This document shows positions 61,952 through 64,000 of a DNA stretch of 64,000 nt, in pieces. Made by a program: the position numbers and the translations under genes. Origin of the DNA: Alphaproteobacteria bacterium (GTDB lineage: Bacteria > Pseudomonadota > Alphaproteobacteria > CAAGCB01 > CAG-977); NCBI GenBank assembly GCA_900768845.1, contig CAAGEK010000064.1, positions 4,682 through 68,681 of the forward strand. The letters are read 5' to 3'. The first letter of the stretch is position 1; each line of letters begins with the position of its first letter. Below the pieces are notes generated by a model. That model was not told the DNA's origin, did no database searches, and saw only the letters and a list, made by a program, of their open reading frames with translations.

Positions 61952-61957
61952 TACCTA

Positions 61958-63106
61958 TCATATCTTGTTTATAATATATTGTAAATATTCACTGTATCTT
62001 TGAAAAATTATATTTTTTATATATTGTTTCATATATAAATAATCGGGTTCTTCGTTATCATCGACAGGAAGCATGATGTATTGTTTTTTCATTCTTTCCT
62101 CATTAAATTTATACCCGTAGCTGTATTTTTCTTTTTGTTGAGCGATTATATTGGATAAAAACAGTAAAATTTCTGAATCATCAGTATGATTCATTAAGTG
62201 AAAACGTTTTACATCATCGCTGAAAATACAGCCGTACGGATGATAAAAAGAGTTTCCTACGCTTCCATTATAATTTACTCCTAATACATTTTTATCGTAT
62301 GAAGCATTTGTTTTTGATACAAAATAAGTGATTCCATTATTAGATACGGAAGCTCCGGCAAAAGGAATTTTACCTTCAATCATATTATGCTTTGTCAGGC
62401 GTTTTCCTGAGAAAATTTTAAATATTTCTTTAATAAAAAATGCCTTCCATTTTTTATTATGAAGAGGTATAATTGTTCTGTTCTGTTCTGTTCTGTTCTG
62501 TTCTGTTCTGTTCTGTTCTGTTCTGTTCTGTTCTGTTCTGTTCTGTTCTGTTCTGTTCTGTTCCAGCTTTTTCCTTGCATAAGCAATATAGTCTCTTCGC
62601 TTCCTATGCATTATTTCTTTTATATAATCTTCCATAAATTGATAATCAGGCCTGTTTTGTATGTTAACAGGCAATAAAATACTTTTTGATGGTAAATCCT
62701 TGCTTGAAAGTTGATTGCCATACGATGAACTTTTTGTATTATTTTTCAAACAGGATAAGATAAACAATGCAATATTTTCATTCAATTCAAAATCTTTTAA
62801 TTGTAGGCAATGAACTTTCATATCTAAACTTGCCGTATATTTATGATAAAAACAGTCTCCTAAAAAAGACACACTTATAAAATTTTTATAGCATCTATAA
62901 TTTTTATGTGTACTCTCCCAATAATTATCTATCCCATTATTCATAGATGTTACTGTAATGCGAGGAGTATATCCTGTTTTTAAATTATCTTTATTAACAT
63001 ATGCTCCTGTTGGTACTTGACGCTTATTTATATCTAAGATAAATAAATCACTAATTTTAAATTCTTTCCACGCCCTATCTGTCAACTTCATCGAAATTCT
63101 CCTCAA
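61958..63106 (-). CDS. hsdS: type I restriction-modification specificity subunit (HsdS-like) with in-frame (NRTEQ)n repeat
   Basis: It has a two-fold architecture: a variable domain followed by a conserved LPV..(R/E)PDY.(F/Y)M..YIK.I module, twice. It overlaps and lies directly downstream of an HsdM-type methyltransferase. The central region is encoded by a (GTTCT)n simple-sequence repeat. The region has low GC. Confidence 0.6.
   Translation of the reverse strand: MRRISMKLTDRAWKEFKISDLFILDINKRQVPTGAYVNKDNLKTGYTPRITVTSMNNGIDNYWESTHKNYRCYKNFISVSFLGDCFYHKYTASLDMKVHCLQLKDFELNENIALFILSCLKNNTKSSSYGNQLSSKDLPSKSILLPVNIQNRPDYQFMEDYIKEIMHRKRRDYIAYARKKLEQNRTEQNRTEQNRTEQNRTEQNRTEQNRTIIPLHNKKWKAFFIKEIFKIFSGKRLTKHNMIEGKIPFAGASVSNNGITYFVSKTNASYDKNVLGVNYNGSVGNSFYHPYGCIFSDDVKRFHLMNHTDDSEILLFLSNIIAQQKEKYSYGYKFNEERMKKQYIMLPVDDNEEPDYLYMKQYIKNIIFQRYSEYLQYIINKI
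62475..62560. repeat. pentanucleotide simple-sequence repeat (GTTCT)17 (plus a partial unit) inside hsdS
   Basis: The perfect 5-bp tandem repeat is read directly; on the coding strand it is (AGAAC)n, giving (NRTEQ)n in frame. Confidence 0.9.
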
Positions 63107-64000
63107 ACAGGTATTTACGTCCTTGCATTATCATTGAAAATTCAAACGATAAATAATCTCCGACTGTTTTTTTAAAATCCGTATCGGTCGGGATTTCATC
63201 ATTAAAATAATAAAAACTGTGTAACCACTCATCTGTATCTTCAACAGTAGTTTTGACACAGAATTTTGTATCTGTTTCTATCCTGTCAAACCATACATCT
63301 AATAAATGTTGTGTTTTATCTTTTGCAGATTCCGTTTCTAATAGACCGATATGCGGAGCAACCTTATATCCATCATCTTCAAAATTAATAAACTTGCAAA
63401 TATGCTCTTTTCTATGTGGTTTTCCAGCTGTAAATATAGCAATACAAGGCATTGTACCAACACCATAAAAGGTATCTTTATTTAAAGTTATTACGCCCTC
63501 TAATGTGTGGTGCTTTAATATATTTTCTTTAGTCGCTTGATCTTCCTTAGATTTTCCAGTCATTGTCGATTGCGGAACAATGACTGCGCATCTTCCGCCG
63601 ACTAGAAGTGAATCTAATAAATGTTCTATAAATCGTATTTCAGATAAATTTTTATCTTTTTTACCTTGACTATAAGGCGGATTCATCATTCCTATATTGC
63701 ATTCTTTTAATTGTAATTTTTTAGGATCTTGCTTTAAAAAGTCTTCGCATAATAAATTGCTTTTGCCATCACCTCTTAATATCATATTGGTTGTTGCAAT
63801 AGCAAACATATAGGGTTGTAACTCAAAGCCATGTAATTGTTTTTCTCGGATATGCTCTTTTTGGTTTACATTAGTTGCTTTATTAAGCATATTATGCATT
63901 GCGGCGATCAAAAAGCCTGCGGTTCCGCAACACGGGTCTAAAACACAATCATTTACCTGTATATCTAACAAGTCACAAAATAATTGTGTGATATGTTTCG
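63075..64000 (-). CDS. hsdM: type I restriction-modification N6-adenine DNA methyltransferase subunit (3' part; 5' end beyond window)
   Basis: HsdM motifs are present: motif I (DPCCGTAGFL), GFELQPYMFAIATTNMILRG and motif IV (NIGMMNPPYS). The ORF runs to the window edge. Confidence 0.8.
   Translation of the reverse strand, partial: KHITQLFCDLLDIQVNDCVLDPCCGTAGFLIAAMHNMLNKATNVNQKEHIREKQLHGFELQPYMFAIATTNMILRGDGKSNLLCEDFLKQDPKKLQLKECNIGMMNPPYSQGKKDKNLSEIRFIEHLLDSLLVGGRCAVIVPQSTMTGKSKEDQATKENILKHHTLEGVITLNKDTFYGVGTMPCIAIFTAGKPHRKEHICKFINFEDDGYKVAPHIGLLETESAKDKTQHLLDVWFDRIETDTKFCVKTTVEDTDEWLHSFYYFNDEIPTDTDFKKTVGDYLSFEFSMIMQGRKYLFEENFDEVDR

Follow-up and report, generated by a model that had tools for sequence, protein, structure and literature searches.

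What does a perfect pentanucleotide repeat do in the middle of a gene for a specificity (S) subunit, and which class of restriction-modification system does that gene serve? These questions are raised by the end of a 64,000-nucleotide stretch of contig CAAGEK010000064.1 from an alphaproteobacterium (the whole stretch is called the window below), where two genes of a restriction-modification system lie in a block of low GC content. A preliminary description of this DNA had taken the block for a horizontally acquired Type I system with a phase-variable hsdS gene. The analysis reported here agrees on the repeat, its frame logic and the acquisition but assigns the genes to another class, and we regard it as quite probable that the locus is a repeat-switched S gene within a BcgI-like Type IIB cassette.

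Class of the restriction-modification system

Both genes of the block are on the minus strand. The first, termed RM here, is represented in the window by its 3' part only, and its stop codon at 63075 gives a 17-nt overlap with the start of the second gene, S, whose ATG at 63091 has a GGAG 7 nt upstream. The RM fragment contains a methyltransferase motif I (DPCCGTAGFL, 63909-63938) and an NPPY motif (63672-63683), and it matches the PADLOC profile REase_MTase_IIG (PDLC03602) over profile positions 331-632 of 637 (E 3.5e-102), as well as the Pfam N6_Mtase and PADLOC MTase_I models. The complete gene is found on contig L001 (ENA ERZ27229848), where the S protein recovered in our homolog search (P0001) equals the window S minus four EQNRT units. 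L001 derives from the same strain, given its identity of 99.7-100% to the window along more than 12 kb.

The full RM protein in L001 has 636 aa and matches REase_MTase_IIG over positions 6-632 of 637 (E 1e-169), with 564 bits vs 142 bits for the best MTase_I model. Its N-terminal part contains P50-E51...E64-D65-K66; P50, E51, E64 and K66, together with N435-P-P-Y438, are invariant in 30 RM homologs of 74-90% identity. A structure model of RM was of moderate confidence (predicted local distance difference test, pLDDT, 69.8) and was used for alignment extent alone; in a Foldseek comparison it aligned with BsaXI RM over about 650 columns and with BpuSI over 594, and with Type I M proteins over only about 400. 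The island in L001 is complete and consists of RM and S; it is bounded by host genes on either side and contains neither hsdR nor any other restriction-modification gene. The PADLOC profiles matched by the two proteins are 637 and 341 positions long, and RM and S fit the sizes of the BcgI subunits.

Type IIB enzymes with a separate S subunit, such as BcgI, CspCI and BsaXI, are composed of two RM and one S subunits, and their RM subunit joins a PD-D/EXK nuclease at the N-terminus to a methyltransferase with an NPPY motif (PMC4081073). BcgI-like enzymes excise a short fragment by cleavage on either side of a bipartite site. The PD...EXK motif of BcgI includes Glu53 of its A subunit, and the E53A exchange abolishes cutting (PMC3592470); the A subunit has a mass of 71.5 kDa and the A2B complex of 182.4 kDa (PMC3592466). 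By its genes, RM is accordingly predicted to be a fusion of an N-terminal PD-(D/E)XK nuclease, a helical connector and a gamma-class N6-adenine methyltransferase. Given the fused nuclease-methyltransferase with a separate S, the lack of hsdR, the end-to-end match to REase_MTase_IIG and the BsaXI-like folds, the system is, as far as genes alone can tell, a two-gene BcgI-like Type IIB cassette. Of the hsdM gene with motifs I and IV that had been proposed before, the motifs stand, but the protein that carries them is the fused RM and not HsdM; the hsdR gene expected past the window end is absent, as the complete island is bounded by host genes. Public annotations explain the former Type I reading, because homologs of RM (P0263, P0325, P0351, P0353 and P0354) are named 'N-6 DNA methylase', 'HsdM family' or 'type I restriction enzyme M protein'. 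That this widespread RM family is of Type IIB is systematically overlooked in public annotation.

The S protein contains two Pfam Methylase_S stretches (E 5e-30), of which the best covers residues 212-361, and its best PADLOC match is Specificity_II (PDLC03591, E 1e-72). An AlphaFold2 (AF2) model of S has a mean pLDDT of 88, and Foldseek matched it to the Type I S subunits 1ydx (E 6e-17), 1yf2 and 3okg and to the BsaXI S subunit (8w0p_C, E 2e-8). Taken together, the Methylase_S stretches, the model and the fold matches reveal the two target recognition domains (TRDs) and two conserved helices by which Type I S subunits are recognized. The 29-aa central helix is predicted to pair with the C-terminal helix and equals in length the C-terminal PDY...KI segment. 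In a sequence search of the PDB with S no match was obtained, the relationship being visible by fold comparison only. No NCBIfam model exists for the S protein, and the RM fragment obtained only far sub-threshold matches there, and exact look-ups of the window S protein (with both possible starts) and of RluB returned no match; the window S protein is, however, the 18-unit cluster member P0122 (NCBI).

The repeat tract and the reading frame of S

Tandem Repeats Finder, run on the 64-kb window, returned a perfect period-5 array of 18.0 copies (100% match; 90 bp), which reads (GAACA)18 on the coding minus strand and TGTTC on the plus strand. The 17 GTTCT units counted previously are the same array in another register, that is, 17 full units at 62475-62559 plus 5 in-phase flanking bases, so a perfect pentanucleotide repeat midway in the S gene is confirmed. 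A 20-mer of the repeat has 15 overlapping matches in the window vs 0 in 100 shuffles, and no second array of comparable kind was found elsewhere in the 64 kb. On the sense strand all three frames of the repeat are stop-free and each encodes the same cyclic peptide.

The frame logic was simulated for the window allele with the unit number n set from 3 to 21. Whenever n is a multiple of 3, a full-length S results (352 aa at n = 3 and 377 aa at n = 18), a state referred to as ON. With any other n (OFF) the product ends 8 or 27 residues past the tract and is 189-233 aa long, keeping TRD1 and the 29-aa central helix and losing TRD2. The simulation thereby upholds both earlier predictions, namely that one or two units gained or lost shift the frame and that three units correspond to one EQNRT (NRTEQ) step.

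Unit numbers differ among public assemblies, as the preliminary description had anticipated. The window allele has 18 units in the window itself (P0122) and 6 in L001, ON in both, and at least 11 in L098 (ERZ28566611), a contig that breaks off within the tract; outside the tract, the island is 100% identical in all three. A sister allele, whose S is about 60% identical and shares TRD1 but not TRD2, occurs with 4 units (ON; L002, L004 and several cluster members), 7 units (ON; L088) and 13 units (ON; L003), and also with 3 units (OFF; L085, a 186-aa product) and 5 units (OFF; L086, a 185-aa product). L086 and L004 come from different samples and show 0 mismatches over 6388 nt, yet they are one unit apart and the change turns ON into OFF. 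Similarly, L085 (OFF) and L088 (ON) have a common chromosomal context with 98.7% identity, and RM is intact beside the split S genes. The length polymorphism, frameshifted alleles included, is thus natural; the expected ON/OFF length variants exist in the sister allele, whereas no OFF copy of the window allele was seen. A pattern scan of metagenome contigs returned one locus only, L004.

The survey was then extended to 80 species-representative genomes, in which RM and S were scanned for simple repeats with strict and relaxed thresholds. The window RM is 67-85% identical to proteins across these genomes, and its relatives span Alphaproteobacteria, Firmicutes, Bacteroidota, Campylobacterota, Spirochaetes, Elusimicrobia and the candidate phyla radiation (CPR); the GC content of the cassette is more than 5 percentage points below that of its flanks in 30 of 74 loci. 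With the strict threshold, mid-S tracts that are read through were found in L005 (C9), L008 ((AGAAG)4), L010 (G9), L013 ((AGGA)10) and L067 (G10), and the tract splits S in L020 (G12), L021 (G9), L039 ((AG)12), L054 (G15) and L072 (G9). The flanks of L067 (G10, ON) and L072 (G9, OFF) are near-identical. With the relaxed threshold, 15 tracts fell into a 300-nt mid-S window (23 kb summed) vs 9 in the remaining 213 kb, most of them trivial and AT-rich. That different types of repeat occupy one mid-S position in many phyla argues for selection of a switch there. Some S homologs (P0002 and P0005) have no repeat at all.

Several further features of the family were observed. In L006, a mouse-gut alphaproteobacterial metagenome-assembled genome (MAG), a decayed copy of the repeat (GAACAAAACAGATAA) is present at 8410-8425 and S is broken into three open reading frames (ORFs), which by its sequence looks like a dead version of the switch. 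Dozens of S homologs, including P0009, P0018, P0020 and P0060, are 520-549 aa long with three Methylase_S domains (three TRDs), and in several of them the junctions between TRDs contain GG or GGG, a hint of G tracts at both. Every Spirochaete member (L062, L064, L066, L071, L075, L077, L081 and L084) carries an A9 run between the RM end and the S start, at about 7905-7937 in most of these loci, which could be a second slippery site or merely an A-rich ribosome-binding region. The sole G/C run outside the mid-S position in the 80 loci is a G10 tract about 168 nt into the RM gene of L037 (6169-6178), a 'Rickettsiales' gut MAG. In L086, a 190-aa ORF of the Phage_integrase family (4783-5355) lies directly downstream of the split S and recalls loci of recombinase-driven hsdS shuffling.

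In the mechanism that we propose, slipped-strand mispairing would alter the number of units of (GAACA)n just past the central helix of S, in a cassette that was inserted at an intergenic site of a gut alphaproteobacterium. If n is divisible by 3, as with the 18 units here, a full-length two-TRD S would be made and would direct an (RM)2S complex to an asymmetric bipartite site; with any other n the product would consist of TRD1, the central helix and a tail. Switching within one population may well occur at a high rate. The truncated state would either silence restriction and modification together or yield a dimer of half-S subunits with a symmetric specificity, and neither of these options is favoured. 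Loss of S would be expected to silence both activities because the A subunit of BcgI alone has no nuclease activity (PMC3592470). A truncated S of the Type I system NgoAV, on the other hand, was reported to dimerise and thereby to alter the specificity (PMC7383803). A half-S dimer is structurally plausible for the RM family as well, as the family holds a free single-TRD half-S (L012, 7877-8401; 174 aa), whose post-PDY helix matches the central helix here in its length of 29 aa, and RM proteins fused to a single TRD (L038, L043, L046 and L082; 814-856 aa). Both presumably act as dimers on symmetric sites.

The consequences of in-frame changes are less clear. EcoR124I and EcoR124II show in-frame changes in how often a short repeat occurs in the central part of S, and the preliminary description had expected a comparable change of spacer length in the present S, which is unproven. 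The repeat directly follows the 29 residues that correspond to the 29-residue C-terminal helix and lies in a part of the AF2 model of low confidence (pLDDT 65, 45 and 59 across residues 181-210), and hence it is not clearly part of a spacing coiled coil. The model suggests that the repeat peptide loops out as a connector and does not lengthen a molecular ruler, and the connector that receives additions or losses of EQNRT is probably flexible. From PDY to the tryptophan of TRD2 there are 41-48 aa in 48 of 51 family members, compared with 68 aa here and 60 aa in P0004, so that the alleles with long connectors are clear outliers and could be functionally different. One may go further and imagine a three-way switch in a cut-and-methylate enzyme, in which the full S would recognize an asymmetric site, half-S dimers a symmetric site, and in-frame expansions (up to +23 residues over the family norm) would re-space the TRDs and change the spacer or the cutting geometry. 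We consider this scheme improbable. If it were true, each switch would expose the chromosome to self-cleavage, because methyltransferases of the BcgI type barely methylate unmodified DNA, and this would imply a protective mechanism or a deliberate lethal cost as bet-hedging.

Several points weigh against a repeat-switched S gene. BcgI is effective only at hemimethylated sites and is almost purely a maintenance methyltransferase (PMC3592466), and a change from OFF to ON should therefore do harm where the chromosome is unmethylated. This speaks against free reversible switching, unless the present family differs from BcgI. Both counted copies of the window allele are ON and no frameshifted copy of it was seen, and for the sister allele the assembled copies comprise about 19 ON contigs vs 2 OFF contigs; this excess of ON fits rare slippage as well as programmed switching. 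Moreover, all unit counts derive from short-read assemblies, which can misjudge repeat length. The same observations are accommodated by an explanation that we judge rather unlikely, in which the repeat is a tolerated, unstable low-complexity linker with neutral changes in length and the frameshifts reflect the decay of a selfish cassette. The in-frame state of every counted window-allele copy, the predominance of ON in the sister allele, the decayed repeat and multiply broken S of L006, the 68-aa connector far outside the family range and the repeat-free homologs P0002 and P0005 all agree with such a linker. It leaves unexplained, however, why G/C runs, AG, AGGA, AGAAG and GAACA repeats are about 15-fold enriched at the mid-S position in many phyla, with runs of G7-G15 that are unexpected in genes of about 33% GC, why RM stays intact next to a split S, and why OFF and ON alleles are found in otherwise identical DNA. 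In addition, the same layout has been taken as phase variation in Helicobacter pylori and in Type I hsdS genes (PMC3936762, PMC7383803).

It is highly unlikely that the differences in unit number are merely artefacts of short-read metagenome assembly. Every contig is indeed of this kind, L098 breaks inside the tract, and short reads are known to underestimate repeat length (PMC7383803), but tracts of 15-35 nt (3-7 units) are far below read or k-mer length and still differ between samples by exactly one unit or a few units on identical flanks, and separate assemblers and archives (ENA, Logan, JGI and NCBI) give distinct values. Just as little credence is given to a classical Type I system, with hsdM and hsdS in the block, hsdR just outside the window, and a repeat that combines ON/OFF switching with a change of spacer of the EcoR124I/II kind. 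The Type I fold of S, the N6_Mtase and MTase_I matches of the methyltransferase part with its public names ('HsdM family', Type I M), and the equivalence of three units to one EQNRT would suit it; the 636-aa 'M' protein with its conserved PE...EDK and its far higher score for REase_MTase_IIG does not, nor does the start of the repeat past the partner helix, in a part of the model of low confidence, suit the change of spacer. The Type I assignment is refuted by the same-strain island of L001, which is complete without hsdR and directly adjoined by host genes. A repeat-switched S gene in a BcgI-like cassette remains the reading that we prefer.

Island, host and mapped features

The coordinates of the cassette and of its parts are listed in Table 1. 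The GC content is about 0.53-0.54 in the flanks and falls to about 0.30 right past 61951, the sharp fall from about 0.54 that had been noted before. In L001 the order is rsmD, orf116, a terminator hairpin, the island of about 3.05 kb at 31% GC and the convergent rluB; the edges of the island lie just past the orf116 terminator and 6 nt from the rluB stop, the latter being the distance at which the S stop faces it. In contigs of a sister species (L094-L096) the site is empty and orf116 stands directly beside rluB with about 64 nt between them, which supports the horizontal acquisition of the block. Neither a mobility gene nor an obvious target-site duplication was seen at the island borders. 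The repeat-bearing allele was absent from viral contigs, in which only two distant relatives of RM were found, and hence there is no sign of phage carriage. A promoter scan gave a result no better than shuffled sequence.

Table 1. Features of the restriction-modification block and its boundary in the window.
Feature	Position	Strand	Description
Low-GC island, window part (RM and S)	61952..64000	-	About 3.05 kb in total; about 1.07 kb past the window end
rluB-like pseudouridine synthase gene	61151..61951	+	Host gene at the island boundary; NCBIfam RluB, E 3.5e-51
RM gene, 3' part	63075..64000	-	Last 307 codons and stop; N-terminal nuclease half (predicted) beyond the window end
S (specificity) subunit gene	61958..63091	-	377 aa, in frame (ON); Pfam, PADLOC, AF2, Foldseek
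TRD1	62651..63091	-	Residues 1-147; alignment and AF2 secondary structure
Central conserved helix	62564..62650	-	Residues 148-176, PDYQFMEDYIKEIMHRKRRDYIAYARKKL; AF2 helix from residue 150
(GAACA)18 simple sequence repeat	62474..62563	-	Encodes (EQNRT)6, residues 177-206, in frame
Connector IIPLHNKK and TRD2	62048..62473	-	Residues 207-348; Pfam stretch and frame simulation
C-terminal conserved helix and stop codon	61958..62047	-	Residues 349-377; AF2 helix 351-376

The alphaproteobacterial origin of the host holds, as the phosphoenolpyruvate carboxykinase (PEPCK) of L001 shares 96% identity with its counterpart in 'Acetobacter sp. CAG:977' and additional matches belong to gut 'Alphaproteobacteria bacterium' MAGs; the same-strain PEPCK contigs L090-L093 end before they reach the island. 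The cassette had been called unusual in an alphaproteobacterial genome, but this was not confirmed, given that the nearest relatives of RM (76-84% identity) are found in gut alphaproteobacterial MAGs. A second length-variable repeat between the window sample and L001 is located in a gene for an M23 peptidase (56413-57885, minus strand), where an in-frame 66-bp tandem repeat at 56522-56817 has 4.5 copies in the window and 3.5 copies in L001 (16215-16444), the proteins having 490 aa and 468 aa, respectively.

Comparison with known repeat-bearing S genes

For genome annotation, the analysis corrects the likely mis-annotation of such RM proteins as HsdM or Type I M. It also adds, from uncultured gut Alphaproteobacteria, a natural example of a repeat switch in a Type IIB S gene with otherwise identical ON and OFF alleles, and it suggests that the mid-S repeat is a recurrent feature of a very mobile BcgI-like family across phyla, beyond H. 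pylori. Among the papers searched, none dealt with a Type IIB S gene that contains a pentanucleotide tract, and none surveyed such tracts across phyla. A puzzle is posed at the same time, as a supposedly maintenance-only enzyme that cuts and methylates should not tolerate its re-activation, yet switches of this kind appear to be widespread.

The cassette resembles BcgI from Bacillus coagulans, CspCI and BsaXI in its overlapping RM and S genes, in the HsdS-like S with two TRDs and in having no separate R or M gene. No repeat has been reported in bcgIB, however, unlike in the present S gene, and the RM protein of BsaXI is far larger (about 915 aa) than the 636-aa RM described here and is alike only in fold.

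What EcoR124I/II has in common with the present gene is a short repeat, centrally placed in S, whose copy number changes in frame. The EcoR124I/II repeat has a 12-bp unit (TAEL in two or three copies), which allows no frameshift, and lies in the helix that sets the spacer; the 5-bp unit of the present repeat shifts the frame, and its peptide is located beyond the predicted helix pairing.

In Type I systems, inter-TRD repeats occur in 7.8% of the hsdS genes in REBASE and have been read as switches between full-length and truncated S, with poly-G in NgoAV, GCAA[n] in P. aeruginosa and H. parasuis and AAGAC[n] in M. haemolytica (PMC7383803). As in those genes, the tract described here lies between two TRDs and its frame decides between a full-length and a truncated S. 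The Type I hsdS products work with separate HsdM and HsdR subunits, whereas the present S would serve a predicted fused cutting-methylating enzyme that is expected to act at fixed positions.

The closest parallel is provided by the BcgI-like S genes of H. pylori, which contain a phase-variable poly-G tract that is in frame as G14 and out of frame as G13, and a repaired JHP system was found to methylate TCA-N6-TRG (PMC3936762). There, too, an RM gene is paired with an S gene in which a slippery tract shifts the frame. The H. pylori tract is a mononucleotide run of G, while the tract reported here is a pentanucleotide repeat of up to 90 bp that also gives in-frame variants (5 aa per three units), and it occurs in a gut alphaproteobacterium. 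That poly-G switches BcgI-like S genes is thus already known from H. pylori, and the present case adds to it.

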